Source of the DNA: an uncultured delta proteobacterium
GTDB taxonomy: Bacteria; Myxococcota_A; Polyangia; Haliangiales; Haliangiaceae
Direction: 5' to 3'
DNA: 64,000 nucleotides
Assembly: GCA_963848295.1 (NCBI GenBank)
Contig: CAWKDB010000002.1
Span: 640,001-704,000, forward strand
In this document: in pieces, positions 9,686 to 41,720 of the stretch
Numbering within the stretch: the first letter of the stretch is position 1
Layout: each line of letters opens with the position of its first letter
Program-made: the position numbers and the translations under genes
Notes under the pieces: generated by a model
What the model was told of the DNA's origin: nothing
The model's database searches: none
What the model saw: the letters and a program-made list of their open reading frames with translations, nothing else

Positions 9686-10632
9686 TCGGGCCGATCGTCG
9701 AACGCGTCGGCGAGGCGTGGCTCGCTTGCGCGCTGATCCAGGCGATGCTGTGGCTCGTCCAGCGACGCACGCGCAACGCCGGCATCGTCGACGTCGGCTG
9801 GGCGCTGACGTTCACCGTGGCCATCGGGATCTATGCGGCACGAGCGACCTCACCGATCACTGCGTGGCTCCCACTCGCCGCGATCGTCGCCGTGTGGAGC
9901 GTGCGGCTCGGTGGCTATCTGATCGCGCGCGGCGCCGCCTCGCCGCCAGAAGAAGGCCGCTACGTTGAGTTGCGCGCGCGCTGGGGCGATCGCGCCGGCT
10001 CGCGCTTCTTCGTGTTCTTTCAAGCGCAGGCCGCGCTGACCGCGTTGCTGTCCAGCGCGCTGGTCGTGCCGTTCGTCGCGGCACCGCGGTGGTGTGCGCT
10101 GCAAGCTGCCGGCGTCGCGCTATCGGCGATCGGCGTGCTCGGCGAGACCATCGCCGATGCGCAGCTCCATCGCTGGCGCCGCGATCCCGCGCACCGGGGC
10201 CAGGTCTGCGACGTCGGGTTGTGGAGCTGGTCGCGCCACCCGAACTACTTCTTCGAGTGGTGCGTCTGGTTAGGGTACGCGATACACGGTCTGGCTTTCG
10301 CGCCGTACGGGCTGATCGCGATCGTTCCGCAGGCGTTGCTGCTGTGCTCGATCTTGTTCGTCACGGGCATTCCACCGACGGAGAAACAGTCGCTCGCGTC
10401 GCGCGGCGATGCGTATCGCGCGTACCAAGCGCGCGTGAGCAAGTTCGTTCCGTGGCCTCCGAAGCGTCGTGATCCTGACGTCCGGATTTCGGACGAATTT
10501 TACGTTCTACACCGGTTCTACACCGGTATGTCAGCACCCTGTTGTACGCTCGGCTGCCATGATCAAGGTGCACGTCGGCACGGACGGAACGAAATCCTTC
10601 CAGGTCTACGGCCGCTCGCGGGTGCGCGATAA
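9682..10632 (+). CDS. DUF1295 (steroid 5-alpha-reductase-like) membrane protein; integration target with element-supplied 3' end
   Basis: NAGIVDVGW, EEGRY, ADAQL, GLWSWSRHPNYFFEW and GIPPTE...YQARVSKFVPW motifs. The expected stop after PKRR (about 10470) is absent, so the ORF runs on to 10632. Confidence 0.9.
   Translation: MIGPIVERVGEAWLACALIQAMLWLVQRRTRNAGIVDVGWALTFTVAIGIYAARATSPITAWLPLAAIVAVWSVRLGGYLIARGAASPPEEGRYVELRARWGDRAGSRFFVFFQAQAALTALLSSALVVPFVAAPRWCALQAAGVALSAIGVLGETIADAQLHRWRRDPAHRGQVCDVGLWSWSRHPNYFFEWCVWLGYAIHGLAFAPYGLIAIVPQALLLCSILFVTGIPPTEKQSLASRGDAYRAYQARVSKFVPWPPKRRDPDVRISDEFYVLHRFYTGMSAPCCTLGCHDQGARRHGRNEILPGLRPLAGAR
10243..10265 (+). other. attL core
   Basis: TCTTCGAGTGGTGCGT (10250-10265) is identical to 41367-41382, and homology starts here. 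Confidence 0.8.
10504..10525 (+). repeat. Tandem 11-mer GTTCTACACCG x2, putative integrase arm-type sites
   Basis: The same 11-mer occurs at 41233 (followed by the variant GTTGTACACCC) and at 41620. Confidence 0.7.
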
Positions 10633-11674
10633 GAGCGTCCGCGTCTACGTCGGGTCGTTCCCATCGAAGCGCGACGCCGAGCACGCGGACCAGCAGCACC
10701 GCGTCACGCAGCGCGGGATCCGGGAGGGCGACCTACCGCCAGCCGTGGACCACACCCGCACGCTCGGCGACGCGCTGGACGCGTGGCTGCGCGCGATCAA
10801 GGACCAGCGCTCGCACGACGAGTACGCCGATCGCATGCGCCTGTACGTGCGGCCCGAGTTCGACAGCACGCCGGTCGTGAAGATCACGAAGTCGAAGCTC
10901 CTCGAGCTGCGCAGCGACCTGCGCGAGCGCGAGGTGCCGTTGGCGCCCAAGACCGTCAACGGCGTCTTCGCGACGCTCTCCGCGGCGTTCAACTACTTCA
11001 TCGAGCAAGGCTGGTGCAGCGACAACCCGACCAAGTTCATCAAGCAGCTCCCGGTCACCCAGCACCCGTTCCTCTGGCTCCAGTCCGCCGGCGAGGTGCA
11101 GAAGCTGCTCGGCGAGTGCAACGACAACATCCGCAACCTGGTGGCGGTGCTGGTCGGCACCGGCATGCGCCTGGACGAAGCGCTGCACCTGCACTGGACC
11201 GACATCGACCTGCAGCACCGCGTGATCCACGTGCACCGCGGCCGCCGTGGCGCGCCCAAGTCCGGCCGCCTGCGCCACGTCCCGATCTTCGACTCCGTGC
11301 TGACCGTGCTGCGCGAGATGAAGCTCGCGAAGGGCACGAACACCCTGCTCTGGCCCGGCGCGAGGCGCGACAAGCTCGGCGACCAGCTTCCCCGCAACAA
11401 GACGAGCGTCTTCTACCCGTTCAAGGCCGCCGTCGAGCGCGCCGGCCTCTCGAAGAAGTTCCGCCTCCACGACCTCCGCCACACCTTCGCCGGCCTGTTC
11501 CTCGCGTCCGGCGGCGACATCTTCAAGCTCTCGAAGATCCTCGGCCACTCCAGCGTCGCGATCACGCAGCAGGTCTACGCGCACCTCCACCCGGACGCGT
11601 TCGCCGAGGACTACAGCCGCGTCTCGTTCGCGATGCCCGAGAAGTCCGGCGTCGTCTTGAAGCTCCGAGCCTAG
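10559..11674 (+). CDS. int: Tyrosine recombinase / phage-type integrase
   Basis: Catalytic set GMR, PKSG, HDLRHTF, LGH and VYAH; N-terminal arm-binding-like domain. Confidence 0.95.
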   Translation: MIKVHVGTDGTKSFQVYGRSRVRDKSVRVYVGSFPSKRDAEHADQQHRVTQRGIREGDLPPAVDHTRTLGDALDAWLRAIKDQRSHDEYADRMRLYVRPEFDSTPVVKITKSKLLELRSDLREREVPLAPKTVNGVFATLSAAFNYFIEQGWCSDNPTKFIKQLPVTQHPFLWLQSAGEVQKLLGECNDNIRNLVAVLVGTGMRLDEALHLHWTDIDLQHRVIHVHRGRRGAPKSGRLRHVPIFDSVLTVLREMKLAKGTNTLLWPGARRDKLGDQLPRNKTSVFYPFKAAVERAGLSKKFRLHDLRHTFAGLFLASGGDIFKLSKILGHSSVAITQQVYAHLHPDAFAEDYSRVSFAMPEKSGVVLKLRA

Positions 11675-11784
11675 CTGCCGTCTGTCCCCCGAGATCGTTC
11701 CATCGCAGCTGCGTGCTGATCGCCGTCGGCAACACAGGTAACTTCCGTGCCAGTGTCACAGCGCTCGTGTAACTATCTCCGGGG

Positions 11785-14685
11785 ATGTCGGACCAGATCG
11801 TCAGCGATCTCGAAGGCTTCGGTGCAACGCGCACCCAGCTGATCGATCTCGCGCGCGAGCATGGTCCGAGGTCGCTGCCCTACCTCGACCTCGCGCGCGC
11901 CACGACCGACGGACGGCCGCCAGTCGTGTTCGAAGTTCAGGGCCAACCGCGAGCCTATGTCTTCGATGCTCGCGGCGAGAGCGAGAACGTGACTAGGTGG
12001 GTGCGGCGCATCGCGTTTCGCGGTGACGCCGATTGGGTCGCCGTGCTCCGCGCAGGTCGTCTCGACGTGTTCCGCGCATCGCTCGGCGGCGACGCGCCGC
12101 TTCCCTTCTCGGGACTACCGCAGGGCCCCTTCTTGTTCCCGGCGCTCCTACACGCTCGGTGTCCGCGCGACGTGTCGAGCGTGCGCGTGGCCTTGCTCGC
12201 GCTCCTCCGCCGTTCGATCACGGGCGCACGTGCGAGCGGCATGAATGCCCGAGACGCGCTCTCGCTGGTGGGCCGCGCGTTGTTCTGGCGGTTCCTCGTC
12301 GACCGCGATCTTCTCGCAGGCTTGGATCCAGCCGACGTCGCGCCGCGCGCGAAGAGCTGGGAGGGTTGCCTCGACAACAAGACGAATGCGCTCGCGACGT
12401 TCGATTGGCTCGACACGACGTTCAACGGCGGGCTGCTCGGGTTCACCAGCTCGGGAACGCCCGGGCGGGTCAAAGCCGAGGTCTACGAGAGTGTGGTCGG
12501 CAACATTGCGCACGCCGCGACGGCCGATGGCCAGCTTCAGCTGAAGCTCCCGACGGAATGGCGCGAAGTGAACTTTGCCCACGTCCCGGTCGGCTTGCTC
12601 AGCGAGGTCTACGAGGCGTACGCGCACGAGGAGTACACGGAGCAAGCAAAGGCTCAGAGCGTGTTCTACACGCCACGCCACATCGCCGACTTCGTTGTCG
12701 ACGAGGCGCTCGCTGCGATCGATGACGTCGCCCAGCCACGCGTTCTCGATCCCGCATGCGGAGCGGGCGTCTTCCTCGTCACCGCGTTTCGTGCGCTGGT
12801 CGCGCGCGAATGGCACCGGAGCGGAAAGCAGCCGTCGCGCGCCGTGGTGCGGCGCATCCTCAACAAGCAACTCGTTGGCTTCGACATCAACGACGATGCA
12901 CTCCGCTTGTCCGAGCTGGCGCTCTACCTGACGGCAATCGAGCTCGATCCCGAGACCCGACCGCGACCCTTAAGCCTGCTGCGATTCGAGGAGTTGCGGG
13001 ACCGCGTGCTGTTCTTGCGCGAGGACGATCACGGAAGCCTCGGTCCCGTGGACGATCGATTTCGCGCGAAGTTCGATCTTGTCGTCGGGAACCCACCCTG
13101 GACTGCGAAAGCAACCGCTCCAGAGAAACGCGCATGGGTTGCCGCGAGTCAGGACGTGCTGCGCGAACGACTCGGCGAAGAGCGAGCCGCAACATTCGAC
13201 TTCCCTGATACCAATCCCGACCTTCCCTTTGTCTACCGTGCGATCGCGTGGGCGGCACCGGGTGGCTCGATCGCGCTCGTCACGCACGCTCGTTGGTTGT
13301 TCGGACAGAGCCCGCGCGCGACATCGGCGCGACGCGATCTACTGCAGTCGGTCCATGTCACGGGCCTGCTCAACGGAACTGCACTCCGAGACTCGAACGT
13401 CTGGCCGAACGTGCGCCATCCGTTCTGCTTGCTGTTCGCCGTCAACGAACCGCCACCGCCGGCCGCCTCGCTCCAGTTCATCAGCCCGGATCTCGAACGC
13501 ACACCGGATCGACTCCAGGATCACATTCGCATCGACTGGAACGATGCACGCGACGTCGCCATCGCCGACATCATCAAGCGACCGTGGTCGCTGAAGGCAC
13601 TGTTTCGAGGAAGCTCGATCGACGAGTCGATCCTCGCCGACGTGCATCAGCGCGGTGTCTCGCTGTCGGAATACTTCGAGACCTTGGGAACCAAGCTGAG
13701 AAACGGCTATCAGGTTGGAGGCAAGGCCGGTCGCCAGCTCTCGGCGAAACACTTGGCGGGACTCCCTGACTTGAAGGGAAGCGCTCCAGGCTTCTTTGTC
13801 GCTGTCGATTCCTTGCCACGATTCTCCCGCAAGACGCTGTTATTCCCGAGAGAGCGACACGCCTATGAAGCGCCTCTCCTCATTCATGAATCGATGCGAG
13901 CCGATCCGATGGCACCGCGGGCGATCGTCGCCCTCCAGGATGTTGCCTACGACGAGCGGTTCAGCGGCGCGTCGTTCGCGGGGGTTGAGAACGGAGAACA
14001 ACTCGCCGAGTACCTTCAACTCGTTGTCCAATCATCTCTATTCACGCACATCGCCCTGTTCCTCGATGGCCAGTTCGGCGTCGAGCGAGAGGTAGTGCAC
14101 AAGGAAACGATCGACGCCGTACCGGTCGTGCCGTGGTCGCGACTCGCTCGCACTCTACGCACACGGTCATCATCACTGTCCCAACGACTACGGGGAGGCA
14201 TCTCGGTGGAGTTGCTTGCCGACATCGACACGTTCGTCGCCGACGTGTTCGAGCTGAGCGACGTCCAGCGCGACGCGATCATCGACACCCTTTCCGTTTC
14301 GCTGCCAACGGCAGCGTCGAAGAGCAACGCGACGCGTGGCACGAACGATAGCGACCGTAAGCTCTTCATGGAGACCTGCGAGACCGAGCTCTTTGACCTG
14401 CTCGACGCGCAGGTCACCGTGTCCTCGGCGAGGATCGCGGGTGATGGGCCCTGGAGATTCATCAATGTGGTCCTGGCAACTGGCGACAAGACCGCGATTG
14501 GGATCTCGGCGGTCGATGCAAGGCACATCGTCGCGATCGCCGACGATGGAGCGGCCTCGTTGATCAAGATCCAGACCGGCGAGCGAGCCTTCGTCATTGG
14601 TCTGCTCGATCAAGACCGGTACTGGACGAAGACACGTGCGCGCCTGCTCGCCTCGGCGCTCGTCTCAGAGAAGGTCGATGGCTAA
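11785..14685 (+). CDS. N6-adenine DNA methyltransferase, large (Type IIG/Type I M-like) with probable C-terminal specificity region
   Basis: LLSEVYE, FYTPRHIADFVV, VLDPACGAGVFL (motif I), GFDIN and VVGNPPW (motif IV). Confidence 0.92.
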   Translation: MSDQIVSDLEGFGATRTQLIDLAREHGPRSLPYLDLARATTDGRPPVVFEVQGQPRAYVFDARGESENVTRWVRRIAFRGDADWVAVLRAGRLDVFRASLGGDAPLPFSGLPQGPFLFPALLHARCPRDVSSVRVALLALLRRSITGARASGMNARDALSLVGRALFWRFLVDRDLLAGLDPADVAPRAKSWEGCLDNKTNALATFDWLDTTFNGGLLGFTSSGTPGRVKAEVYESVVGNIAHAATADGQLQLKLPTEWREVNFAHVPVGLLSEVYEAYAHEEYTEQAKAQSVFYTPRHIADFVVDEALAAIDDVAQPRVLDPACGAGVFLVTAFRALVAREWHRSGKQPSRAVVRRILNKQLVGFDINDDALRLSELALYLTAIELDPETRPRPLSLLRFEELRDRVLFLREDDHGSLGPVDDRFRAKFDLVVGNPPWTAKATAPEKRAWVAASQDVLRERLGEERAATFDFPDTNPDLPFVYRAIAWAAPGGSIALVTHARWLFGQSPRATSARRDLLQSVHVTGLLNGTALRDSNVWPNVRHPFCLLFAVNEPPPPAASLQFISPDLERTPDRLQDHIRIDWNDARDVAIADIIKRPWSLKALFRGSSIDESILADVHQRGVSLSEYFETLGTKLRNGYQVGGKAGRQLSAKHLAGLPDLKGSAPGFFVAVDSLPRFSRKTLLFPRERHAYEAPLLIHESMRADPMAPRAIVALQDVAYDERFSGASFAGVENGEQLAEYLQLVVQSSLFTHIALFLDGQFGVEREVVHKETIDAVPVVPWSRLARTLRTRSSSLSQRLRGGISVELLADIDTFVADVFELSDVQRDAIIDTLSVSLPTAASKSNATRGTNDSDRKLFMETCETELFDLLDAQVTVSSARIAGDGPWRFINVVLATGDKTAIGISAVDARHIVAIADDGAASLIKIQTGERAFVIGLLDQDRYWTKTRARLLASALVSEKVDG

Positions 14686-15453
14686 CGGTCGGCGCCGTCG
14701 GCTCTCGGTTCGAGCGCAGCAGATCCTCTCGGAACCGGACATCTCCGAGGTGCGCAAGCGCGCCGTCGAACGTGCCCTCCGGTGGGCCTGGAGAGAGGTC
14801 GGACAGCGCTGGCCTACGATCGCGAAGACCGGAAGCGAGGAGCAGGTCACCGCGAAGATGCATCGCGTTCTGAACGAGCACACGCCCACTCATCGTCGTG
14901 CTGCGCCCGGGCTTCATTCCTTCGAGACCGTGAACCGCGGTTCCAAGGTCGAGGCGGCTGACGCTCGGATCGAGCTGATGCCGACCTCGTGTTCCGTCCG
15001 CCGCTCCCCGTAGGCGTCCGCAACCGCGGCGACTGGGGATACTTCGTCGAGTGCAAGATCGTGGACGGAGCGGCATCGATCGGCCTGTACTGCACGCAGG
15101 GTGTCGAGCGCTTCACGAGCGGCGCGTACGCAGCTTGGATGCCCAGCGGCGGGATGCTCGCGTACGTGCGCGACGGAACGCGTCCCTTTGCCTCGTTGAA
15201 GGCTCGATTCGCAAAGGGCTATTCGACCCAGCATCACCTTCACCGATCTGCCGACACCAGCGATTCGATGCACGGGCGCGGCGCACTACCGACACCGTGC
15301 GTCGACATCGCGCTCGTGCACCTGTGGCTGTCCACGAGCTGGCCCTCGCCGTCCGACTGGAGCGCCCGCGTGAGCGGATGGGCCGCCGTCCACGGGCGCC
15401 CACCAATTCTGGTAGCGATCGGTGCCAACGAGGCCGACGGACAGGCGTCGTAG
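14678..15453 (+). CDS. Putative PD-(D/E)xK nuclease, one frameshift near 14982
   Basis: ATG overlaps the MTase stop. Joining two ORFs gives ...SEEQVT...MPDLVFR...YFVECKIV...[15 protein letters not shown]...GGMLAYV. Confidence 0.65.
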
Positions 15454-15489
15454 CCTAGGCGCACGGTCCTACGTAGCCGGCGCGAGGTC

Positions 15490-16545: not shown

Positions 16546-16579
16546 GCGCAGCGAGCTCGCTCCGAGAGAGAATGATTGA

Positions 16580-18859
<2,280 letters not shown>

Positions 18860-18863
18860 GCGC

Positions 18864-20344: not shown

Positions 20345-21404
20345 ATGCGACGCCCGGGGCCGCGCCCGCGACGGCTCGGCCCTCGCCGGCCTCCATCCCG
20401 CCTACTTCGCGATGGTGATGGCCACCGGCATCGTGTCCATCGCCTCGCTGCTCGTCGGCTTCCGCGCGATCGCGGTCGCGCTCCTGCCGGCCAACGTCCT
20501 CTTCGCCATCGTCCTTGGCCGTGTTGACCGCCTGCGCGTGGTCCGGTATCCGCGGCGGGTCGCGGCCGATCTCGCCGACCACGGGCGCGCGGTCGGTTTC
20601 TTCACGCTGGTCGCCGCCACGAGCGTGCTCGGAAGCGAGCCAGACCCTGCTCCTCACCGGCGCGCGATCGATCGCGACATCGCTCTGGATCCTGGCGATC
20701 GTGTTCTGGGCGACGTTGACCTATACGGTGTTCACGGTCTTGACCGTCAAGCGGGTCAAGCCGACGCTGGCGGGAGGGATCAACGGCGGCTGGCTCGTGG
20801 CGGTGGTCGCGCCGCAGTCGATCGTCATTCTCGGCGCGCAACTCGCGGCCGGCTTCGGCGCGCACGCGCAGGCGGTGCTGTTCTTCTGCCTAGCATGTGG
20901 CTGGGCGCGGGGATGCTCTACATCTGGATCATCTCGCTCATCTTCTATCGCTACACGTTCTTCGTGCTCGAACCATCGGACCTGGCGCCGCCGTACTGGA
21001 TCAACATGGGCGCGGTGGCGATCTCGACCCTGGCGGGAAGCTTCCTCATCCTCGACGCCCCCCAGTCGCCGCTGCTGGCGCAACTGGTGCCGTTCCTAAG
21101 GGCTTCACGTTGCTCTTCTGGGCCACGGCGACGTGGTGGATTCCAATGCTGGTGATCCTCGGGGTCTGGCGCCACGGCGTCGCGCGGTTCCCCCTGCGCT
21201 ACGACCCGCTCTACTGGGGCGCCGTCTTCCCGCTCGGCATGTACACCGCCTGCACGTGGCGGCTGGCGCAGGCCATCGACGGTGCCCTCGCTCATGGCGA
21301 TTCCCCGCGTGTTCATCTTCGTCGCGCTGGCCGCGTGGTGCATCGTCGCGGCCGGCATGGCGTGGCACCTCCTCGGCCGGCCTCGTCTTGCAGCAAGTCG
21401 ATGA
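20345..21404 (+). CDS. TDT / SLAC1 family (tellurite-resistance/dicarboxylate) anion channel; frameshifted
   Basis: PAYFAMVMATGIVS, INGGWLVAVVA, PPYWINMGAVAISTLAG and YWGAVFPLGMY. Confidence 0.85.
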
Positions 21405-21457
21405 GGAATAGCCCGGCGTTTCTAGCAGTTCGATCGTGACGGCGCGCTTGGCGTGTT

Positions 21458-23757
21458 TCAACCGGCGTTCGTCAGCCGCTCGACCGGTTCGCGCGCCGGG
21501 ATCTTTCCCGGTCGATTCCGGTTCGCGACCATGCGCAGCGCGAGGTAAAGGAGCGGCACGACCCCGCCGATGATGAAGACGACGTCTCCGGGTAACCGCA
21601 GCCACTCGAGGAGCGTACGTCGCCGCGAGCAAAGAACTCCGGGCTGCGGGCATGCCAGTATCCGTGACGAGCGCGTCGTGAAGCTGGAGCGCGCCGATCG
21701 GGAAGAGGTTGACGCAGACCATCCAGGCGAGACCACCATTGAGCGACCAGAATGACCACTTCATCGCCCGTTCGGTCCGCGCATCGCGCGGGACGAAGTA
21801 GGCGGCCACGAACATGAAGAAGCCGATGGCGAGCATGCCGTAGACGCCCATCATCGCCGCGTGGCCGTGGTTCGCGGTGAACTGAGTGCCGATCTCCCAG
21901 TAGCTGACGATCGGCAGGTTGATGAGGAACCCGAAGACGCCGGCGCCCACGAAGTTCCAAAAGCCCACGGCGGTCAGGAACATGACGGCCCACTTGTGCG
22001 GAAACCGCTCGTCGCGTGTGTCCATCGTTCGCTGGCCGGGGCTCCTCCCCCAGGCGCATGAACCGCCACGCTTCGAAGGTCAGGAGCACGAGCGGAACCA
22101 CCTCCATCGCCGAGAAGAACGCTCCGAGCGCCATGTGCATCGCCGGCGTCCCGCTGAAATAGAGGTGGTGCATCGTCCCGACCACGCCGCCGATCGAATA
22201 GAGGATGATCTCGAGATAGATAAGCCGCGTCGCCGACCGCTCGGGAACCATTCCGATCAGCACGAACATGTAGGCGACCGTCACCGTGGTGAAGATCTCG
22301 AGGAAGTCCTCGACCCAGAGATGAACGACCCAGAAGCGCCAGAAGTCGATCACCGCGAAGTGCGACTTCGGCCCGAAAAGCATTCCCACTCCGTAGAAGA
22401 GAGGGATGGAGAGTGCCGCATAGAGGAACAGCGACGGGAGGCTCCCGAGATGTTCTGCGCTCAGCTTGGAGCGAAGGCCTCTGAAGATGATGACGAGCCA
22501 CAGCACGAGCCCGGCGGTGAGGGCAATCTGCCAAAGCCGGCCCAGATCGAGATACTCCCAGCCTTGCGCCCCCACCCACCACGCCGTGGAGGGCGACCTA
22601 ATGATGCCTCGATAGCTCAGCGTCTCGCCGGCCAGCGAGCCCCCCACGACGACGATCAGCGCGCCGAACAGCAAGAGCGCGAGCGTGTCCTGGTGGCGCG
22701 GCTCCTTCCCGGCGATCATCGGCGCGATGAAGATCCCGATCGCCAGGTACGCGGTCGCGACGAAGAACAGCGCGAGCTGGAGATGCCAGGTCCGCGTCAG
22801 GTTGTACGGAAACCAAGACGCGACATCGAGCCCGAAGAAGGTCGTCGGATCTGCGTGGTAGTGAGCGTTGGCCCCGCCGCAGAGCGCTTGAAGTAGGAAC
22901 AAGCTGATGACGACCAGGAAATACCAGACCGTCGAGCGCTGCCCGGAGGTGAGCCCGACCTCGCCAGGCTGGCGGAAGATGATCGTCCGTGCGCCGTCCG
23001 GGGCCTCGTCCGGCCAGCCGAGATCACGGAAGCGCCCGAAGGCAAAGAGCGTCGCGCCGATTCCGCCGAGCAGCGCGATGAGCGAAAGGGTCGACCAGAG
23101 GATCGCGTCGGCGGTGAGGGTGTTCCCGATCTCCGGCGCGGGTGGCCAGTTGTTCGTATAGGAGTACGGTTTGTTGGGGCGGTTCGCCGTCGCGACCCAC
23201 GCGGACCAGGAAAAATACGCGACGAGCGCCGGGATCTCTTCCGGCGAGATGGTCGGGCGCCGCAGCCCGCGCTGGCTCTCGGCCGGGCCAAACCATTGGC
23301 GATAGTAGTCTCGGAGCTCGCGGAAGGCGGCAGCCTGCGCGGGCGTGAAGACGAGGACGTCCCGAGTCGCATCCCAGCGATTGGTCTTGAAGTCCTCGAG
23401 GACGCGCCGCGCGGGATTCGTGGCGGCGTTCGACGCGTAGAAGTGGCCCATCGCCTCGCGCGCGCGCTCGATGTAGTCGGCGGTGAAATCGGGACCGAGG
23501 TAGGCACCGTGGCCGAAGATCGTCCCGTACTCCATGAGGCCGTATTTCCCGAAGATCAGCTGCCCCGCAAAGACATCGTCTCCCGTGAAAAGAATGCTGC
23601 CATCCATGGCGACGGTCTTTCGGGCAACAGGCGGATGCTCGGCGTACACGCGGTAAGCGAGGTAGCCGAGGATGGCGAACCCGACTACGAACGTGAGAAG
23701 CGCCACCTGAATCCAGGTGGGCGAGACGGCGAGCGGGGACCGGGCGGGCTTGGCCAT
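21458..23757 (-). CDS. norB: Quinol-dependent nitric oxide reductase (qNor); frameshifts near 22030 and 21620-21660
   Basis: GHGAYLGPDFTA, SYTNNWP, RTWHLQL, GWEYLDLGR, HLWVEDFLE, GTMHHLYF, SAMEVVPL, NHGHAAMMGVYG and WLRLPGD. Confidence 0.93.
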
Positions 23758-23878
23758 CCGAGCCTTATATCCCGCGGGGCGATTGGTTCGGTGGCGCAAG
23801 TGCGATGGCCTCCGGAGCGGGTACTGCTGCTCCTCCCGCCCTCGAATGCGAGCTCGGCCCGTCGCGTGCATCGCATAG

Positions 23879-24470
23879 GTGTCGCGCCAAGCGAGGCACG
23901 AACCCCCTGTACACCGTCGGCCACTGGACGCGCACCGCCGGCGAGCTCGTCAAGGTCCTCCTAACGCGTACGCTGCGACGAGGCTGGTCGATATCCGCAG
24001 CATTCCACGCTCTCGGACCAACCCGCAGTTCAACCTTGACGTCCTGCCCGACACGCTCCACGCAGCGAAGATCAGCCACGTCGATCTCGCCGCGCTCGGT
24101 GGTCGCCGAGGCAAGAGCAAGAGCATCGAGAACGGGCGTCAACGCCGCTGGCTGGGAGCGGCAGCCATTTCACAACTACGCCGACTACGCCGAGACCGAG
24201 CCGTTTCACAGGAGGGCTCTCGAAGCGCAGCTCTCCGCGATGGCGGCGAACGAGACGTGCGCGATGATGTGTGCCGCAGGCGCTCCGGTGGCGCTGCCAC
24301 CGCCGGATCGTCCGCGGGTATCATGTGCTCGCGCGGGGAGTCCCGGTCTTCCACATCAGCACGCGCGCAACGAGCCGCGCCGGCCGTGATGACGCCGTTC
24401 GCGGTCGTGAGCAAGGCGGGCGGCGTCTCGTACCCCGCGCCCGCCGGGACGGACACCGCGAGTCGTGCCA
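23879..24470 (+). CDS. DUF488 family protein; frameshifted, end approximate
   Basis: YTVGHWTR, LVDIRSIPRSRTNPQFN, LGGRR, FHNYADYA and MC...WRCHRRIV. Confidence 0.8.
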
Positions 24471-24480
24471 TCCCCCCCCG

Positions 24481-24572
24481 GCGCGGCGCATCACCGAAGC
24501 GACGCGCCCCCGCTCCGCCGAGACGGCGATTGCCTGCACGAAATAGATCTCGAACACCTTCGCCCACGGCTG
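24481..24572 (-). pseudogene. Remnant of a truncated-hemoglobin 3' end
   Basis: Colinear with 31225-31316: QPWAKVFEIYFVQAIAVSAERGRVAS versus QPWAEAFKLYFMQAIAVPAERVRAAS. Confidence 0.8.
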
Positions 24573-29854: not shown

Positions 29855-30020
29855 GCTGCTGATCTTCTACCGCTACACGTTCTTCACGATGAGCCCATCC
29901 GACCTCGCCCCGCCGCACTCGCCGGCGCTCGAGCAGATCCTGCCGTTCGTGCGCGGCTTCACGTGGATGTGGTGGGCGACCGCGACGTGGTGGATCCCGA
30001 TGCTGCTGATCCTCGTCGTG
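29855..30020 (+). pseudogene. Internally deleted fragment of a TDT/SLAC1 gene
   Basis: LIFYRYTFFTMSPSDLAPP|HSPALEQILPFVRGFT..WATATWWIPML matches the 20.9-21.2 kb gene minus the YWINMG...LDAP segment. Confidence 0.8.
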
Positions 30021-30045
30021 CAGCACACCAATGATGAACGTCGTC

Positions 30046-30606
30046 TCACGACGCGCCGAAGCCGTCGTTCTTCGCGAGCCAGCGGACGATATCCATCGTG
30101 GACACGATCCCGATGAGCCGACCATCATCGTCGACGATCGGAGTGTGATGCACGTCCTCGCTCGCCATCAGCGCGGCCGCATGGGCGACGGTGGCGCGCT
30201 GCCCGAGCGTGATGGCGAGAGGCATCATCAGCTCGTTGGCAGTCTTTGTTCTGAGATCGTTGGAGGTCGGGCTCTCCGCCTGCTCCAGATCGTTCTCGAG
30301 TAGCTGTTCGACGAGATCGAGCTTCGTGATCATGCCGATCGGACGCCCCGGCTCCTCCACGACGGGAACGCAGCCGATGTGCTCCCGTACCATGAGCTCC
30401 GCGATCAGCGCCGCAGACAGATCGCGGCTCGCGCACGTGACGTTGCGAGTCATGATCTCCGTGACGGGAATCAGGTCGGCGATCGTCCGAACGGATGCGA
30501 GGTCGGGATCGGGTTTGGCGCAGGAGAGAAACCGGTCGGTGTGTGCCCCGCCCATCCGGAAGATGCGCAGGTTCAGCTGGCTGTCGGCTGCCATCGTCTT
30601 CGTCAT
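30046..30606 (-). CDS. CBS-pair domain protein
   Basis: VTEIMT...IGCVPVV...IGMITKLD and LIGIVSTMDIV. Confidence 0.85.
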   Translation of the reverse strand: MTKTMAADSQLNLRIFRMGGAHTDRFLSCAKPDPDLASVRTIADLIPVTEIMTRNVTCASRDLSAALIAELMVREHIGCVPVVEEPGRPIGMITKLDLVEQLLENDLEQAESPTSNDLRTKTANELMMPLAITLGQRATVAHAAALMASEDVHHTPIVDDDGRLIGIVSTMDIVRWLAKNDGFGAS

Positions 30607-30763
30607 GACGATCAGCTCAGCAAGGTTCGCGCCCGAACCAACAGGCGTGCCCCCCAGGCAACGCGCAGAAGTTTCGCCGCGGAGCGACGGCAGCGCAGCC
30701 GATTCGCGGTTCCTCCAGAGACGTCCGGCGGCATCTGGCGCGTCGGCTGCAAGTCCATCTAGC

Positions 30764-31168
30764 GTGAACCCACAACAAGCTCTCGAGGATGTCCTCGCCC
30801 AACACGCCGAGCTGCGCGAGCTAACGGATCGTTGCGATGTGCTCGCCGACGAGCTGGACGCCGGGCAGATCGAACCCGACGCTGTGCTGCGCGAGGTCGT
30901 ACGTCTACGCCTTCGATTCGAGGCGCAACGCCGGTTTGAGGAGCTGGTTCTGCACCCGATGCTTCGCGAAGCAGGCCTGTTTCGCGCGATTCCCGTGGCG
31001 AGTGTCTCTTGGCGCAAGCCGCTTCCGCAGCTTGCGCTCGCTTCGGACGTCACGGTCGAGCTTCGACTCACGCTCGACGCGCTGCGTACCGGTCTCGACG
31101 CGGAAGATCGGCCTTATCGGTCGTTGCGTGTCCTTCAGTACACCACCGAGCTGGGCGGGCCGCGATGA
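30764..31168 (+). CDS. Hemerythrin-like helical-bundle protein (degenerate ligands)
   Basis: LAQHAELR...QRRFEELVLHP..DAED pattern. Confidence 0.55.
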   Translation: MNPQQALEDVLAQHAELRELTDRCDVLADELDAGQIEPDAVLREVVRLRLRFEAQRRFEELVLHPMLREAGLFRAIPVASVSWRKPLPQLALASDVTVELRLTLDALRTGLDAEDRPYRSLRVLQYTTELGGPR

Positions 31169-31214
31169 TGTCGTTCGCGGTGGCGAGCAAGCTGTGCCGC
31201 AGCGCGTGCTGCGA

Positions 31215-31637
31215 TCATGAGTCCGCGCGGCGCCTCACCGAAGCGGCGCGCACCCGCTCCGCCGGCACGGCGATCGCCTGCATGAAGTAGAGCTTGAACG
31301 CTTCGGCCCACGGCTGCTCGTCGACCGCACGCGCCATGCACAAGAGCCACGCGTCACGCTCGGCCTCGTCGATCGCAAAGCGTGCGTGGAAGCCGGGGAT
31401 CGAGATGGCTCCGAATCGCGCCCGATATTCGTTGGGGCCACCGAGCCAGGCCACGAGGAAGACCGCGAGCTTGTCGCGGACCTCCGTCAGATCGGTGGCG
31501 TGCATCGCGCGAAGCGCTCGCGCCGCGGGGAGCGTCTCCATGTGCTCGTAGAACCGATGGACGAGGCGGTCGATCCCATCGGCACCACCCGCGGCGCGGT
31601 ACGAAGCGTCGTCAGTTCCGTAGCTTGATGAGGTCAA
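31215..31637 (-). CDS. Group II truncated hemoglobin
   Basis: YRAAGG..GIDRLVHRFY, WLGGP..Y, FHARFAI and ERDAWLLCM. Confidence 0.9.
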   Translation of the reverse strand: MTSSSYGTDDASYRAAGGADGIDRLVHRFYEHMETLPAARALRAMHATDLTEVRDKLAVFLVAWLGGPNEYRARFGAISIPGFHARFAIDEAERDAWLLCMARAVDEQPWAEAFKLYFMQAIAVPAERVRAASVRRRADS

Positions 31638-33152: not shown

Positions 33153-33183
33153 ACTGCTAACCCCTCGTGATCAGGGGGGACGA

Positions 33184-33237: not shown

Positions 33238-33239
33238 CT

Positions 33240-34795
<1,556 letters not shown>

Positions 34796-34803
34796 CCGCG
34801 CCA

Positions 34804-34817
34804 GGCACGCGCCTTGC
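34804..34817 (+). promoter_or_regulatory. sigma54-type promoter upstream of the YwiC-like gene
   Basis: AGGCACGCGCCTTGCG, close to the TGGCACG-N4-TTGC consensus. Confidence 0.7.
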
Positions 34818-34826
34818 GTTGACGGG

Positions 34827-35675: not shown

Positions 35676-35717
35676 TGGGTCCTGTCGCCGCTTGCTGGCC
35701 GCTCGCAACGTGACGCT

Positions 35718-36191
35718 TCAGGCCGGCTCGGTACTCGCGCGATGGAACTCGACGAAGAACCGCACCTCGCCCTCCGGTACGACGCGATGCAGGACCTCGG
35801 GTACGACGATCCCCGGCACGCCGGGCTCGAGGAGTCGCTCGCAGGCCAACGGCGGTTCGACGATGTAGCGCAACCGACCGGCGAGCACGTGGATCACGCC
35901 CCAGACACCGGGCTTCGTCGAATGATCCTTTCTCAGCCCGTCCGGGATCGAGAGCTGATCGAAATCGCGCGTGCGCTTGTAGGGCACGTGGCGCGCGGGC
36001 AGCTCGAAGCGATCGCAGAGGACGCACGGCAGCTCGACGCCGACTTTCTCGGCGCGACCCTCGGGCGTCAGCACCCACTCGCGAACCCAGAACGGAGGGC
36101 GGTGGCGAACGTGCTGGCCGTGGCCACACCGCAGCTCGGCCACCCAGTCACCGACCTCGTCCTGATGAAACCCGTCGATCACGCGCAACAT
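35718..36191 (-). CDS. DUF3565 + DUF1971 (YeaR/TehB-N-like) fusion protein
   Basis: DWVAELRCGHGQHVRHRPP...CVLC, then YKRT..F...IPDGL...HSTKPGVWG...P...HRV...FFVEF. Confidence 0.85.
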   Translation of the reverse strand: MLRVIDGFHQDEVGDWVAELRCGHGQHVRHRPPFWVREWVLTPEGRAEKVGVELPCVLCDRFELPARHVPYKRTRDFDQLSIPDGLRKDHSTKPGVWGVIHVLAGRLRYIVEPPLACERLLEPGVPGIVVPEVLHRVVPEGEVRFFVEFHRASTEPA

Positions 36192-36193
36192 GC

Positions 36194-37048
36194 TCAAGGC
36201 TTCCCCGGCGACGCGATCAGGGTCCGGACCTCCCACAGCTCGGGAAAGAACGTGAGGTCGAGCGCCTTCTTCAGAAAGCCAACCCCCGAGCTTCCGCCGG
36301 TGCCGGGCGCGAACCCGATGATGCGCTTGACGGTGGTCATGTGGCGGAAGCGCCAGAGCTGGAAGCGCTCCTCGACGTCGACGAGCTTCTCGCACATGTC
36401 GTAGGCGTCGTAGTTGCGCGCCGGGTCGGCGTAGATCGTGCGAACCACTTCGAGCACGCCGGCGCTCGACTCGTAGGGCTGGGTGAAGTCCCTCGCGAGG
36501 CGGTCGGCCGGGACCGCGTGGCCATGGCGAGCGAGCCAGCTCAGGAACTCGTCGTACAGCGAGGGCGACGCGAGCCGGGCCATGAGCTCGGCGTGAATGC
36601 GCGGGTCGTGCCGGTGCGGCTTGAGCGCGTTCGCGTCCTTGTTCCCGAGGACGAACTCGAGCGCGCGGTACTGGTAGCTCTGGAAGCCGCTCGCCTTGCC
36701 GAGCGCGTCGCGAAACTGCGCGTACTCGCTGGGCGTCATCGTCTCGAGGACCGCCCACTGCTCGAACAGCATCCGCTGGATGTGCGCGACGCGCGCGAAG
36801 ATCTTGAACGACTCCGCGAGCCGGTCGGTGCGCACCAGGGTCGCCGCGCAGTCGAGCTCGTGGAGGAGGAGCTTGATCCACAGCTCGCTGGTGTGGTGCT
36901 GGATGATGAACAGCATCTCGTCGTGCACCGTGGTTAGCGGTCGCTGCGCGGCCAGCAGCTCGTCGAGGTGCAAGTAGTCGCCGTACGTCCCGCCCTTGTA
37001 GAGCTCGATGTGGATGCCGGTCTCCAGCTCGCGACGGTTCTCGCTCAT
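36194..37048 (-). CDS. kynA: Tryptophan 2,3-dioxygenase
   Basis: YGDYL.LDELL, HDEMLFIIQH, ASGFQSYQYR, WRFRH and GTGGSSG. Confidence 0.95.
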   Translation of the reverse strand: MSENRRELETGIHIELYKGGTYGDYLHLDELLAAQRPLTTVHDEMLFIIQHHTSELWIKLLLHELDCAATLVRTDRLAESFKIFARVAHIQRMLFEQWAVLETMTPSEYAQFRDALGKASGFQSYQYRALEFVLGNKDANALKPHRHDPRIHAELMARLASPSLYDEFLSWLARHGHAVPADRLARDFTQPYESSAGVLEVVRTIYADPARNYDAYDMCEKLVDVEERFQLWRFRHMTTVKRIIGFAPGTGGSSGVGFLKKALDLTFFPELWEVRTLIASPGKP

Positions 37049-37173
37049 TCGCTCCAGCCGATGCTGGTTCCAGGCCAGCCCACGGAGTTGGATGGATGCC
37101 CAGCCGAGCTTGCAGCCTGCCCCGCAGGAACCATCTTCGCGAACGCCGACGATCTCTCCGAGCTGCTCGTCGA

Positions 37174-38070
37174 CTACCTGCGCGAAGCGAGGTCCGGTGT
37201 GGCGATCATCTCACGGGCGAGCTGCAGCGCCGAGTGCGGCTTCGTGGTCGGCGCGCACCGCGCCAGGATCACCTTCCAGCCGTTCCGCGCGCTCGCCGCC
37301 TCCGCGACGATGCTCGCCACCTCGGCCGAATCCACGCGCTCTGCCGAGATCCGGCGCTTCGAGCCGTACTCGGCCGCCAGTGCTCGGCGCTCGGCCGGGT
37401 TCCTCGCGCGCGTGACGATGCGCGCGTACGCCTCGCACGAGTAGGCGAAGGTCTCGCGCTTCCGGAACTCGATGTCGAGCAGCCACTCCTTGGTGCGCGT
37501 CTCGCGGAGTCTGATCGTCCGTCGCTTGCAGTTGTGGAAGATGTGCGCGGCCTCGTGGACGATGAAGTCGGCGAACGGATCGCCTTCGGCGAAGTAGTCC
37601 GGAGAGACGTAGCAGGTGGTCTCCTCACTCATCCCGACGATGCGCGCGGCCTTCTTGCCCAGCAACTTCGCGCCAACACTGAGCAGATACATGTTCGCGA
37701 TGTCCCACCTGGAGTGATCCCACATGTGATTCAGAAGGATCGACTCGATCGTTTCGCTCGTGACGTAGACGACGGACTTCTCGAACGTCGCGAGCACGAT
37801 GTCCTGCTCGGCGCGCGCGAAGAGCCCGCGCACCATCGGCTCGACCTTGGCGCGCGTGAGCTCGATGCCGACGTTCGCGGGCACCGGCTCGTGGGAGTGT
37901 CCCTTCGCGAGACGACGAACCGCATCGACGAGCGCGCCGCGAAGATCTGCGTCCTGAAGCCGTCCGCGCTCCATGAAGTCGCCCGGCCACGCTCGGGCAT
38001 CCATATCGCTGTCCCCGGTACGGAGGTAGCGCTTGATCTCGTCAGCAATGTTCGGCGTAGGTTTAGGCAT
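37174..38070 (-). CDS. Hypothetical protein with HEXXH zinc-metalloprotease-like motif
   Basis: DFIVHEAAHIF followed about 25 aa later by RETFAY. Confidence 0.6.
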   Translation of the reverse strand: MPKPTPNIADEIKRYLRTGDSDMDARAWPGDFMERGRLQDADLRGALVDAVRRLAKGHSHEPVPANVGIELTRAKVEPMVRGLFARAEQDIVLATFEKSVVYVTSETIESILLNHMWDHSRWDIANMYLLSVGAKLLGKKAARIVGMSEETTCYVSPDYFAEGDPFADFIVHEAAHIFHNCKRRTIRLRETRTKEWLLDIEFRKRETFAYSCEAYARIVTRARNPAERRALAAEYGSKRRISAERVDSAEVASIVAEAASARNGWKVILARCAPTTKPHSALQLAREMIATPDLASRR

Positions 38071-38354
38071 CGTTTCTTGCCGTCGCTCGGGGTGGCGCCT
38101 CGGCAGTCGTCGAGCTGCCTGTCGTGGTCTCGCGTTGGGATTCGTAAACGATCGCCGAGCGAATTTGCAGCAGCTGCTGCAAGATTGGTGATGGAGTCCG
38201 CAGCTGATCGCGAGCACCGACACCGGGAATTCATAGACGGACCGAGCCCGGCAATCGGGCAACGACCGTTGCACAATTGCCGATTCTTTCTCCGGGGGCC
38301 GGGGACAATGTGCCCGGCGTTGCGATCGGCGACGTGGCGCGGCAACCTGCTTCC

Positions 38355-38981
38355 GTGACAATCAACGTCGACACGCCACTCACCGATGACGAGCTCGACC
38401 TGCTCGAGGAGCGGGGGCTCGACGTCCACCACGCTCTCGGCGTGATCCACGCCGTTGGCGTCGCGCCCGGCATGATCCCAACCCCGCAGTGGCTGCCGCT
38501 CGCGTTTGGGGACGCGCCACCAGATCAGACCACGATCGGGCTCGTGCTTCGCCTGTACAACGCGGTCCTCGGCATGCTCTCCAAAGGTCGGGAAGTCATG
38601 ATTCCCGAGGCGGACGACGAGGCTGCTTGCATCGCGTTCGCCTCCGGCTATGTGGCCGCTGCGACACTCGACCCGGCATGGGTCGGACACACCGCGCGGT
38701 GGACGTTCGCCGCGCCGCTCGCGTTTCTCGCCGAGCGCCATGACCTGGTCCCGGCTGGATTCCTCGCCGAGGTTCCGGATCAGCAGGAAGCACGCAAGGT
38801 CGCCCTCCGAGATCTCGGCAAGCTGGTCTACGCGGCCTATCAAAGCTTCGCGAAGGATCGCCTCGCGACGGCCCACGCCGCGCATGCCCGCGCGACCACG
38901 GCACGCGTCGGGCGCAACGAGCCTTGCCCGTGCGGGTCGGGCAAGAAATACAAGCGCTGTTGCATCGAACGAACAACGTGA
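38355..38981 (+). CDS. UPF0149/YecA-like protein with SEC-C motif
   Basis: PGMIPTPQWLP, FASGY and C-terminal GRNEPCPCGSGKKYKRCC. Confidence 0.85.
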   Translation: MTINVDTPLTDDELDLLEERGLDVHHALGVIHAVGVAPGMIPTPQWLPLAFGDAPPDQTTIGLVLRLYNAVLGMLSKGREVMIPEADDEAACIAFASGYVAAATLDPAWVGHTARWTFAAPLAFLAERHDLVPAGFLAEVPDQQEARKVALRDLGKLVYAAYQSFAKDRLATAHAAHARATTARVGRNEPCPCGSGKKYKRCCIERTT

Positions 38982-39013
38982 TCGTTCACGACGGGTTGCC
39001 TCGAGCTGGTCGA

Positions 39014-40198
39014 TCACTTCTTCCGATGGCCGACCTTCGTGCCGGCCGCCTTGGGCTTCGCAGCACGGCGCGTCTCGATGGCGTGGATCGTCTTCTCGAT
39101 CTCCGCGACCAGGACTGGCTCCTTCGGCAACACGGTGCGGTACTCCGCGGCCAGCACTTTGTTCGGCAGGTTCTCGAGCGTGTAGTGCGCGACAGCGCTG
39201 TCCCTCTCGGCGCACAGGATCAGCCCGACCGGTGGGTTCTCGCCCTCGACCATCCAGTGCTCCCGCGCGTAGTTCAGGTAGAGGTGCATCTGGCCGGCGT
39301 CCGCGTGCGTGAGCTTGTCGAGCTTCAGGTCGATGATGACGAGGCAGCGAAGGCGCCGGTGGAAGAACAGCAGATCGATCCGGTACCACGCGTCGCCGAC
39401 ACGCAGCCGTCGCTGGCGCCCCACGAACGTGAAGTCGCCGCCGAGCTCGAGGAGGAATGACTCCAGCTTGGCGATCAGCGCGGACTCGAGGTCGTTCTCG
39501 GAGTACTCGTCCTTGAGGTTCAAGAACTCGAAGAAGAACGGATCCTTGATCTCCTCCTCGGCAGTTATCACGTCATCGGGCATCTGCTCCTGGCCCTTGC
39601 GCAGCATCGCTGCCTTGTTCTTCGAGAGCGCGGTGCGCTCGTAGAACTGGCTGCCGATCTGCCGGTCGAGCTGGCGGACGGTCCAGCCGCCGCGTAGCGC
39701 CTCGGCTTCGTAGAACCGCTGCGCCTCGGGGTTTCGAACCGAGAGCAGACGCACGTAACACGACCAGGGCAGCGGGAAGTGTCCCGCAACGTGGGCCAGC
39801 TCGTTCAGGCCGGCGAATTTTGCAGACACCGTCTGCAATTTCTGGAGTGCCGGCTCGGACCGCGATTCTGCAGACGCTGTCTGCAAAGTCTCGTCTCGAT
39901 GCGCGAGGTAGAAGGCGCGCATGTTGAACACGTTCCGCTGACCGAATCCGCGGCCAAACCGGGACGCGAGGTCCACGGCGAGGCGAGCGACCAGCACGTC
40001 GCCGTAGTCGGCGCGCGCCTTGCCATGCTGCTCCTCCTCGACGATGCGTCGCCCGACCGCCCAGTAGGTCATCGTGATGACGGCATTCGACGTACGAACG
40101 ACCGCGCGCCGGCCGGCATCGATCAACGCGACGACGTCCGCGAGCATCGCATCGTAGCCCGGCGCGACTCTCACGAGACTGGTCTTCTTGCGGGTCAC
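39014..40198 (-). CDS. DUF1016 / YhcG PDDEXK nuclease-domain protein
   Basis: YWAVGRRIVEEEQ.G..RADYG, LPWS.Y, KDPFFFEFL, ELGGDFTFVGRQ, IDLLFFHR, IIDLK and GQMHLY. Confidence 0.92.
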   Translation of the reverse strand: MTRKKTSLVRVAPGYDAMLADVVALIDAGRRAVVRTSNAVITMTYWAVGRRIVEEEQHGKARADYGDVLVARLAVDLASRFGRGFGQRNVFNMRAFYLAHRDETLQTASAESRSEPALQKLQTVSAKFAGLNELAHVAGHFPLPWSCYVRLLSVRNPEAQRFYEAEALRGGWTVRQLDRQIGSQFYERTALSKNKAAMLRKGQEQMPDDVITAEEEIKDPFFFEFLNLKDEYSENDLESALIAKLESFLLELGGDFTFVGRQRRLRVGDAWYRIDLLFFHRRLRCLVIIDLKLDKLTHADAGQMHLYLNYAREHWMVEGENPPVGLILCAERDSAVAHYTLENLPNKVLAAEYRTVLPKEPVLVAEIEKTIHAIETRRAAKPKAAGTKVGHRKK

Positions 40199-40293
40199 GA
40201 CGCCTCCGGCAATTGCGCAAGCGGCGCGTGCGCGATTGGACGTCGAGCCAGGGTGCGCGTCGACTTGCTTGTCCTCTTTCGAGTTGTCGCCAT

Positions 40294-41070
40294 CTAGCTC
40301 GCCTCCTCGCCCAAGCGCACGAGCACTTCCCAGCGCAGGCCGCGAGGGTCGAAGCCGTACGCGGTCACACGGTACTCGCCTGCCCCGACGCGCGCCACGA
40401 GGTCGGCGAGCGCGACCGAACCCGACACATTGAAGCCGCCCAGCTCGGTGAGGTTGCGATACTCGACGAAGCCGTTCGCGTTGTTCTCGTCGGGGATCAT
40501 GAAGTCGCCCTGCATGCGCGCGACGCTGAGACGCGTCGACTGCTTCTCCGGCAACGACATGAGCAGCTGGGACAGTTGTACGGGCGTGACGCGCCGGACG
40601 ACATCCCGAGGGTCGTGGAGCGGCGGTAGCGCGGGCTCGGGACGCTGCAGCTCGCCCGACCACAGGCCGACCAGCCACGTGTGGTAGAGGTCGCGGACGT
40701 CTTCCGGCGGTACGCGCAGCGCGATCACGATCTCGGCAAGCGAGTGGCGCTGCTCGAGACGCTCGAACACGAGCGCCGCGAGCTCGCCCTTCGAGAGCTG
40801 CGCGGCGTTCACCACGGCTTGCTGCGCGTTCCGCGGCGACCGGTGCTCCGCTACCAGCTCCTTCGCAAGCCGCTCGACATCGGACGCCTTGAAGCGGCGC
40901 ACGCTGTTCGCGTCGATCGTCGGGTGCAGACGCGTGCCTTCGAAGCGGCGCACGGTCGAGATGCTGACGTCTAGGCGCTTGGCAACGTCATCGCGGGTCA
41001 ATGCTGCCAAAGACGGCCCGTCGTCGCCCTGTTTTGCGTCTAAACGCTTGGCTTTCTCGCGCTTCGGCAC
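40294..41070 (-). CDS. MerR-like HTH protein, putative excisionase/directionality factor with C-terminal extension
   Basis: LTRDDVAKRLDVSISTVRRFE...RRFKASDVE winged-helix motif; located next to attR. Confidence 0.65.
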   Translation of the reverse strand: MPKREKAKRLDAKQGDDGPSLAALTRDDVAKRLDVSISTVRRFEGTRLHPTIDANSVRRFKASDVERLAKELVAEHRSPRNAQQAVVNAAQLSKGELAALVFERLEQRHSLAEIVIALRVPPEDVRDLYHTWLVGLWSGELQRPEPALPPLHDPRDVVRRVTPVQLSQLLMSLPEKQSTRLSVARMQGDFMIPDENNANGFVEYRNLTELGGFNVSGSVALADLVARVGAGEYRVTAYGFDPRGLRWEVLVRLGEEAS

Positions 41071-41232
41071 CCCAAAACCATACCCTAACCCTCTGATCTT
41101 TAGACCATCCGGAAAGCGCGGAGAAATGCACGACCATGTCAAAAACAGACTAAAAGTCTGTCTGTCATCAGCCTGTCAAGCCTGGCAGACAGACCATTGC
41201 CTGACGCGTGACACCTCGTGGCAGGCAAATCC

Positions 41233-41254
41233 GTTCTACACCGGTTGTACACCC
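41233..41254 (+). repeat. Arm-type repeat pair at the right end
   Basis: GTTCTACACCG-GTTGTACACCC, matching 10504-10525. Confidence 0.7.
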
Positions 41255-41359
41255 GGCCTTTTTCAGTGATCTTGCCAGCCTCGGCGACTGCTCACGTGTT
41301 CAGTGGACCTACGTGTCACAAGATCTCCAAGAATCACGAGTTATTACAGGTATTTCGGC

Positions 41360-41590
41360 AACTACCTCTTCGAGTGGTGCGTGTGGCTGGGCTATGCCGT
41401 GTATGGAATCGCGTTCGCGCCGTGGGGGCTCGTCGCGCTCGTGCCGCAGCTGATCATCCTCGCGAGCATCTGGGGCGTCACCGGCATTCCACCGACGGAG
41501 GCGCAGTCATTGCGCTCGCGCGGTGATGCGTATCGCGAGTACCAGAAGCGCGTGTCGAAGTTCGTCCCGTGGCCGTCGAAGCGCCGGTAG
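41360..41590 (+). pseudogene. attR core plus displaced DUF1295 3' end
   Basis: NYLFEWCVWLGY...GIPPTEAQSLRSRGDAYREYQKRVSKFVPWPSKRR*, homologous to 10243-10470, with no 5' part. Confidence 0.9.
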
Positions 41591-41599
41591 CGCGGCGTC

Positions 41600-41720
41600 T
41601 GGTTTTCGGACAATTTTGCGTTCTACACCGGTCTATCAGACCCCTGTCATTGGCTCCGGTGCCATGATCAAGGATGCACGTTGTCACGGACGGAACGAAA
41701 TCCTTCCAGGTCTACGGTCG
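41600..41720 (+). pseudogene. Degraded integrase leader and first ~19 codons of a second element
   Basis: GTTCTACACCG at 41620. GCCATGATCAAGG(A)TGCACG...CACGGACGGAACGAAATCCTTCCAGGTCTACGG is nearly identical to 10556-10611. Confidence 0.85.

Follow-up and report, generated by a model that had tools for sequence, protein, structure and literature searches.

A 31-kb tyrosine-integrase island that carries its own DUF1295 3' end and probably entered ahead of an older island in an uncultured myxobacterial genome

The window analysed here, a stretch of 64,000 nucleotides (positions 640001-704000 of contig C2 in genome G000, an assembly that is 85% complete and contiguous across the region; features are given in window positions), contains a tyrosine-integrase island of 31,117 bp (10243-41359), which lies in the Asn-Tyr-Phe codons of a DUF1295 gene and brings an in-frame 75-codon 3' end, or tail, of its own. 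Very probably it belongs to a family of DUF1295-targeting islands and entered site-specifically, at a 7-bp overlap, ahead of an older, decayed island. In this family the junction and the arm geometry are fixed, the tail travels together with the integrase, the target gene stays intact, island junctions are stacked, and DUF1295 is parted from its ancestral cfa-like neighbour.

Two DUF1295 3' ends are present in the window, one beginning at 10243 (NYFFEW...) and the other at 41360 (NYLFEW...). Over 75 amino acids their identity is 76%, with 20 synonymous and 18 non-synonymous differences among the 75 codons, and the blocks that hold them (10243-10614 and 41360-41720; 375 nt) are 76.5% identical. 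The first tail completes a chimeric DUF1295 gene (9682-10632, + strand; Pfam PF06966, E 1e-55), in which, according to the translation and a structural model, host codons 1-187 are joined to the island-borne replacement end (10250-10472, +), a 75-codon segment of the GIPPTE type with four predicted helices. Behind it stand a pair of arm-like direct repeats, GTTCTACACCG (10504-10525, +), at +261 and +272 from the core start, and the gene for an intact tyrosine integrase of 371 aa (10559-11674, +; PF00589; PHROG 1, E 2e-62), whose R204, K234, H304-x-x-R307, H330 and Y340 were read from the translation and an alignment with XerA. At the other end, a right arm-like pair (41233-41254, +), at offsets of -127 and -116 in line with other right ends, precedes the core AACTACC (41360-41366, +), which is both attR and the junction between islands. 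The displaced DUF1295 3' end (41360-41590, +), an intact 76 codons of island type by tail identity, comes next, followed by the left end of the older island (41620-41720, +), with a single arm repeat at 41620 and a truncated integrase start (ATG at 41664) that has 93% nucleotide identity over 41664-41720 and a 1-nt frameshift. A further relic, covering integrase residues 166-192 at 87% nucleotide identity, lies at 59698-59776 (+). The original prediction, made on the bare sequence, described both the repeated 3' end and the arm repeats, and they are real: GTT(C/G)TACACC occurs five times in the window (10504, 10515, 41233, 41244 and 41620), where its frequency in the rest of the genome predicts 0.14 per 64 kb, and the only tandem pairs in the whole genome are those at 10504/10515 and 41233/41244. 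Joining 10242 to 41360, the predicted empty site, gives an open, in-frame gene of 263 codons.

It is scarcely credible that this repeat is an assembly artefact, as had initially been considered. Several cargo genes are frameshifted, as happens in noisy long-read assemblies, yet the two copies have diverged by ~24% and the same layout is seen in dozens of other genomes. Since runs X1 and X9, which come from one study and possibly from the source sample, hold short-read contigs that agree with 41381-41674 and 41389-41631 at every base, and contigs of related strains (X2 and X3) cross the junction from right end through core to tail, long-read error does not explain the second tail.

The family was followed through 91 genomes of one Kofleriaceae genus, 78 of which have a DUF1295 match (a tally that includes two unpublished genomes, which support none of the conclusions); these genomes are kin, not independent, and p values given below overstate significance. 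Most of them are fragmented metagenome-assembled genomes, and attL and attR are therefore usually found on separate contigs. Among integrases of at least 70% identity that retain the N-terminus, 33 of 34 have a DUF1295 3' end immediately in front of them, mostly 91-97 bp away, against none of two at 57-69% identity and two of 28 at 40-56% (G010, G057, weak paralogue matches and matches without a 3' end were left out of this count). Independent scans found the linkage at 28 of 28 informative GTDB loci and at 11 of 13 informative metagenome loci, the two exceptions being an integrase interrupted by a sequence resembling an insertion sequence and a core-bearing secondary site; the proposed survey of integrase homologues thus came out in favour of a DUF1295 association. 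Within a sample of 401 genomes drawn across the phylum, only two, both of this same genus, yielded the close integrase clade; the seven other matches had at most 43% identity.

The borders recur at fixed positions. Matches to the DUF1295 tail alone begin at residue 182-190 in 30 of 44 cases. The fetched DNA holds 61 full DUF1295 genes from 60 genomes, eight matches without a locatable core having been dropped, and arm repeats or an integrase start follow 39 of them; the 22 genes with neither behind them, together with 13 of 13 in sister genera, represent the empty sites that had been anticipated in relatives. Stops inside the tail frame occur in 2 of the 61 full genes versus 6 of 32 tail-only copies. 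Of 32 islands, 24 have the first left arm repeat at +261, the overall range being 258-267, and the right pair stands at -125 in 13 of the 16 right ends in which a pair was detected, out of 20 examined. The right ends are homologous over ~340 bp, consist of a divergently oriented helix-turn-helix (HTH) gene, a pentamer array and the arm pair, and join the tail exactly before AAC. Their junctions include AGCTACT, ACCTACT, AATTATT and AACTACC; because all this variation falls in positions 2-7, we infer a 7-bp overlap, AACTACT, which in the window forms the attL core (10243-10249, +) and is followed by TCTTCGAGTGG. At unrelated sites the left ends read AACTAAT, AGCTAAT or AACCAAT, and then an intact TCTTCGAG.

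At L053 (G015), L073 (G008), L051, L076, L087, L222, L228 and L243 a left end begins with the core and lacks the 5' part of the gene; in G015 and G008 a full gene precedes it by 67 bp and 1.4 kb, respectively, and the core of that full gene carries synonymous changes. Such left ends may result from secondary-site integration or from deletions made by the integrase. The idea that hosts escape through synonymous change of the core found no support, variant cores being present in 7 of 22 empty and 6 of 39 occupied genes (Fisher p 0.19, among related genomes).

In the window the HTH gene (40294-41019, - strand) codes for a conserved protein of ~240 aa with an N-terminal MerR/HTH_17-type helix-turn-helix (PHROG 66, E 1e-5; HTH_17 in 14 of 16 homologues), and its counterparts precede 20 of 32 tail-only DUF1295 copies. 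By its sequence and place, the protein is likely an excisionase (recombination directionality factor). Upstream of the right arm pair, an array of TG(T/G)CA-like pentamers spaced by ~11 bp (41137-41224, unstranded) shares its offsets with the 20 right ends (-222, -199, -184, -172, -162, -150 and -139, tallied without a shuffle control) and provides candidate excisionase sites. Binding of the integrase to the arm repeats, like that of the excisionase, is suggested by position and by general knowledge of lambda-type integrases. Elsewhere in G000, a frameshifted sister integrase (C9:51497-52571, -; 44-58% identity by segment) has an excisionase-like gene upstream and no DUF1295, and belongs to a different element type, and C10:51959-52617, away from DUF1295, holds a distantly related copy of the HTH gene (45-55%).

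The tail belongs to the island and travels with its integrase. Relative to the window, G067, G088 and G019 have intact integrases with 91-94% DNA identity and tails with 90-91%, while the 5' parts of their DUF1295 genes are only 66-74% identical, the step falling at the core. This step and the open frame of the replacement tail agree with the earlier proposal that the island restores its target gene. Over 20 genomes, the Mantel correlation of tail with integrase is 0.44 (rho; p 0.001) and that of tail with 5' part 0.17 (p 0.053), all of them kin. The same comparison bears on the view that the islands have by now largely lost their mobility, the site being a variable hotspot whose borders spread by homologous recombination and the integrase a mere passenger. 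This view, which we hold to be improbable, would fit with the many integrase relics, with cargo that varies by genome and with the transfer genes not found in the open reading frames (ORFs) scanned and the family searches; it accords poorly with such closely similar intact integrases in hosts with such divergent 5' parts, with the sharp break at the core, and with left ends that begin at the core at unrelated secondary sites.

The 41360 tail is, to judge by its sequence, island-type and derived from an older island, as the original prediction held, rather than the ancestral host end. Tails in the sister genera carry GIP(A/H/Y/S)TE in 13 of 13 cases and island-followed tails GI(P/L)PTE in 39 of 39; the 41360 tail has GIPPTE, with a median identity of 76% to 49 island-followed tails versus 63% to 12 tails coupled to a cfa-like gene. 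Were it the ancestral end, with the arm repeat and integrase start behind it a local duplication, the lack of a third tail downstream would be expected; this motif, its closer relation to island tails, and a cfa-like gene placed 52 kb further on make such an origin highly unlikely. Ancestral-type tails do occur behind an island right end in G087, G054 and L243, and that of G054 is still fused to the cfa-like gene. Empty genes divide into 11 with an island-type tail, 10 with an ancestral one and one that is unclear.

Tandem stacking, the other element of the earlier proposal, is seen beyond the window as well. Among 20 tails that follow an HTH gene, 17 are island-type and five are then followed by an arm repeat or integrase, that is, by a stacked junction; contig C63 of G073 bears two HTH-tail ends, and six genomes have at least three DUF1295 3' copies. 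Displaced and active tails have a median identity of 0.81 within genomes versus 0.71 between genomes, which points, in lineages where islands have long been resident, to additional homologous recombination and homogenisation or to local re-entry. At 0.72, the tails of G000 are not homogenised, as would fit a recent arrival. Rather than by two local integrations, the stack could have arisen through arrival of a ready-made composite, as one report describes for tandems (PMC5704250), or through RecA recombination between newcomer and resident tails, in keeping with the frequent homogenisation within genomes. We consider this unlikely: the window tails are no closer than tails from different genomes, differ from base 7 on and share no long identical tract, and members of the 95% subgroup are found singly in hosts with unrelated 5' parts.

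Several observations weigh against site-specific entry of a mobile island ahead of an older one. (i) The cores at 10243 and 41360 are unlike at one base, AACTACTT versus AACTACCT, so that base 7 is not shared by attL and attR, and the inverted repeats flanking the core are weak by eye. (ii) A displaced tail is closest to the active tail of its own genome in 8 of 27 cases. (iii) A third DUF1295 3' copy had been expected beyond the window, and this was not borne out: motif search, tblastn, a genome search and a 73-sequence nhmmer profile recovered from G000 two copies and one right end, with neither a third tail nor a second right end, and the far border of the older island has therefore likely been deleted. 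(iv) Family searches of G000, within its 85% completeness, did not find the type IV secretion coupling protein (PF02534), the TrwC relaxase (PF08751; other relaxase families were not searched genome-wide) or Terminase_6N (PF03237), and the island had no match in viral contigs. (v) Assembled contigs, which were searched in place of reads, contained no circle, attP junction or empty-site junction.

Our preferred account of site-specific entry would run as follows. The island would circularise and present an attP of ~400 bp, made up in order of an arm pair, 125 bp, the core, the tail, a second arm pair and the integrase gene; this circle would recombine with the core of the host gene, so that the newcomer enters beside the 5' part of that gene and the earlier tail, arms and integrase are shifted to its right end. 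Deletion would then strip older islands of integrase and right end, and in this genome would have removed the ancestral tail too. Excision, presumably directed by the HTH protein, would leave an intact 263-codon DUF1295 gene with the older tail. Because the island codes for no recognised transfer genes, movement by a helper (a conjugative element or a phage) or as free DNA appears likely; this is the weakest step and a best guess.

The protein that is remodelled is likely a lipid enzyme. Its model has a pLDDT of 95, and the best fold matches are weak (sterol reductase and SRD5A, E 0.004-0.009; also ICMT); no sequence match was found among solved structures. In Chlamydomonas a DUF1295 gene is listed among singlet-oxygen-induced genes together with CFA1 and CFA2 (PMC4067076), which agrees with a lipid-modifying role. 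The core codes for N188-Y189-F190, at the start of a predicted helix and invariant in 45 aligned proteins, and the swapped part comprises the C-terminal 29%. Homologues stop near 10472; the window copy has lost the usual stop, runs on for ~54 codons and overlaps the integrase start, a read-through due to a 1-nt deletion and a 1-nt insertion relative to G012 around the stop (10462-10632). In a related contig from run X1 the stop is normal, and the read-through may be genuine or an error of assembly. Sister genera have one DUF1295 copy in each of 14 genomes with a match, coupled to a cfa-like methyltransferase gene in 11 of 13 counted (14 fetched) and with no arm repeat or integrase; within the genus this coupling is seen in 0 of 61. 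The cfa-like gene of G000 is at C2:733,656, 83 kb past DUF1295 and 52 kb past the second tail, and at L169 and L171 (G085 and G044) it is inverted relative to DUF1295 and beside gcvP. Upstream, a conserved gene of 353 aa (8624-9685), whose stop overlaps the DUF1295 start, keeps its position in most relatives and has no Pfam, PHROG or NCBIfam match.

The cargo begins with a type IIG restriction-methyltransferase-like gene (11785-14685, +; Pfam N6_Mtase; PADLOC REase_MTase_IIG, E 5e-20) and continues with a nitric-oxide (NO) and stress cluster (16323-37048, no single strand; Pfam) that includes a molybdopterin oxidoreductase, qNor, a globin, a Ric-like hemerythrin, a sigma-54 regulator, a transaldolase and a Trp dioxygenase. 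Between 16323 and 27086 the molybdopterin oxidoreductase, a SLAC1-type channel, qNor and transaldolase genes are split by frame, whereas the integrase, the HTH gene and the flanking host genes are intact; the splits may reflect decay or sequencing error. Internal duplications of 60-115 nt with 75-84% identity link the NO-response cargo at 20936-24572 and 29858-31316. A YhcG/DUF1016 PD-(D/E)XK protein (39014-40297, -) is a frequent near-terminal island gene. The region of the older island holds a cluster at 56678-58920 with an MbnB/TglH/ChrH-family (DUF692) enzyme, DUF2063, ECF sigma and anti-sigma factors and DoxX. Among genomes the cargo is a mosaic of restriction-modification, NO detoxification, mercury-transport-like, efflux and extracellular contractile injection system (eCIS)-type genes, and at L197:2376-10202, L192:3286-17465 and L063:6154-11592 a Tc-toxin-B-like protein or eCIS-type genes come directly behind the integrase. 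Relaxase, coupling and type IV secretion genes were absent from the selected window ORFs and from 45 cargo ORFs (10 loci in 9 related genomes), as were virion, terminase and primase genes from the window ORFs scanned. A prophage or a phage satellite of the phage-inducible chromosomal island or P4 kind is accordingly rejected, given also the viral-contig result, and the ORFs scanned and the G000 family searches do not identify an integrative and conjugative element or a relaxase-carrying integrative and mobilisable element.

The mechanism of recombination and the stacking are known from other systems. Integrases that target genes have, as a rule, a replacement sequence in their attP (PMC10111431). 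As with e14 and the lambdoid prophages at E. coli icd, the site lies inside a coding gene and the element brings the 3' end; there the displaced end stays as the pseudogene icdC and excision gives a chimeric functional enzyme (PMC13626634, PMC10111431). However, the icd elements are prophages and exchange between icd and icdC alters about two residues, whereas no phage genes were found in the DUF1295 island and its swap changes 18 of 75 residues over four predicted helices of a membrane protein. The dusA islands (PMC4482086) likewise pair one integrase clade with one coding gene, a replacement segment and mosaic cargo, the integrase being the main shared gene, but they replace the 5' end, occur in more than 200 Proteobacteria and have had excision shown by PCR; the DUF1295 family replaces the 3' end, was found in one genus, and has the HTH gene as a second shared gene along with arms at fixed positions. 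With a target other than the 5' end of a dus gene, it does not belong to the dusA-associated family. Tandem accretion through serial entry at one coding target is known for ICESt1/ICESt3 and cis-mobilisable elements (CIMEs) at fda, SXT/R391 at prfC and SGI1 at thdF, where older elements likewise decay and the internal att sites are chimeric (PMC5704250, PMC5812530); these carry conjugation or mobilisation functions, of which none was found in the DUF1295 island. The older unit is not a CIME as defined, because one border is lost (G000 has no distal tail or right end). The iOriTs, integrative oriT-only islands without relaxase or mating-pore genes (bioRxiv 10.64898/2026.01.13.699239), offer a likeness that serves as a lead only.

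What appears new is DUF1295 as the target, together with an apparent sweep of the tail. The literature searched contained no report of DUF1295 as an integration target, and one supplement of PMC12884075 held no match; the TIGER/Islander database (GTDB r214) may list some of these islands. The original prediction called the target unusual: DUF1295 stands as a target used throughout the family, while the supposed rarity of protein-coding targets does not hold, 43.4% of islands mapped by TIGER/Islander being in coding sequences (PMC12424338). The ancestral tail type is kept in only 10 of 61 genes and the island type is found in about 50 of 61, an apparent sweep. Mapped onto a tree of 56 DUF1295 5' parts, tail type requires 8 changes, of which strong branches force at least 5; this is no fewer than with shuffled labels (mean 9.3-9.4), and the tree is that of a short gene and not of the species. 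Because tail type changes at least five times on it, DUF1295 trees and functional inference in the genus are chimeric.

These results supply a new integrase-target pair for myxobacteria with core and arm geometry mapped, and since other relatives at the Haliangiaceae level conserve the target codons, the pair could be used as an integration tool. They mark the site as the chief point of entry for cargo into an abundant uncultured genus, where NO detoxification, mercury-resistance-like, defence and eCIS-type genes come in, and they document with unusual clarity how, in nature, a mobile element has swapped a large part of a host protein. More tentatively, and we would put this as a possibility rather than an expectation, the islands may act as a horizontally spreading pool of alleles for the C-terminal 29% of DUF1295, in which the tail swap persists after island loss and independently of host ancestry, integration and excision toggle functionally different enzyme forms and uncouple the cfa-like partner, and a selfish element would have rewritten a lipid pathway genus-wide.

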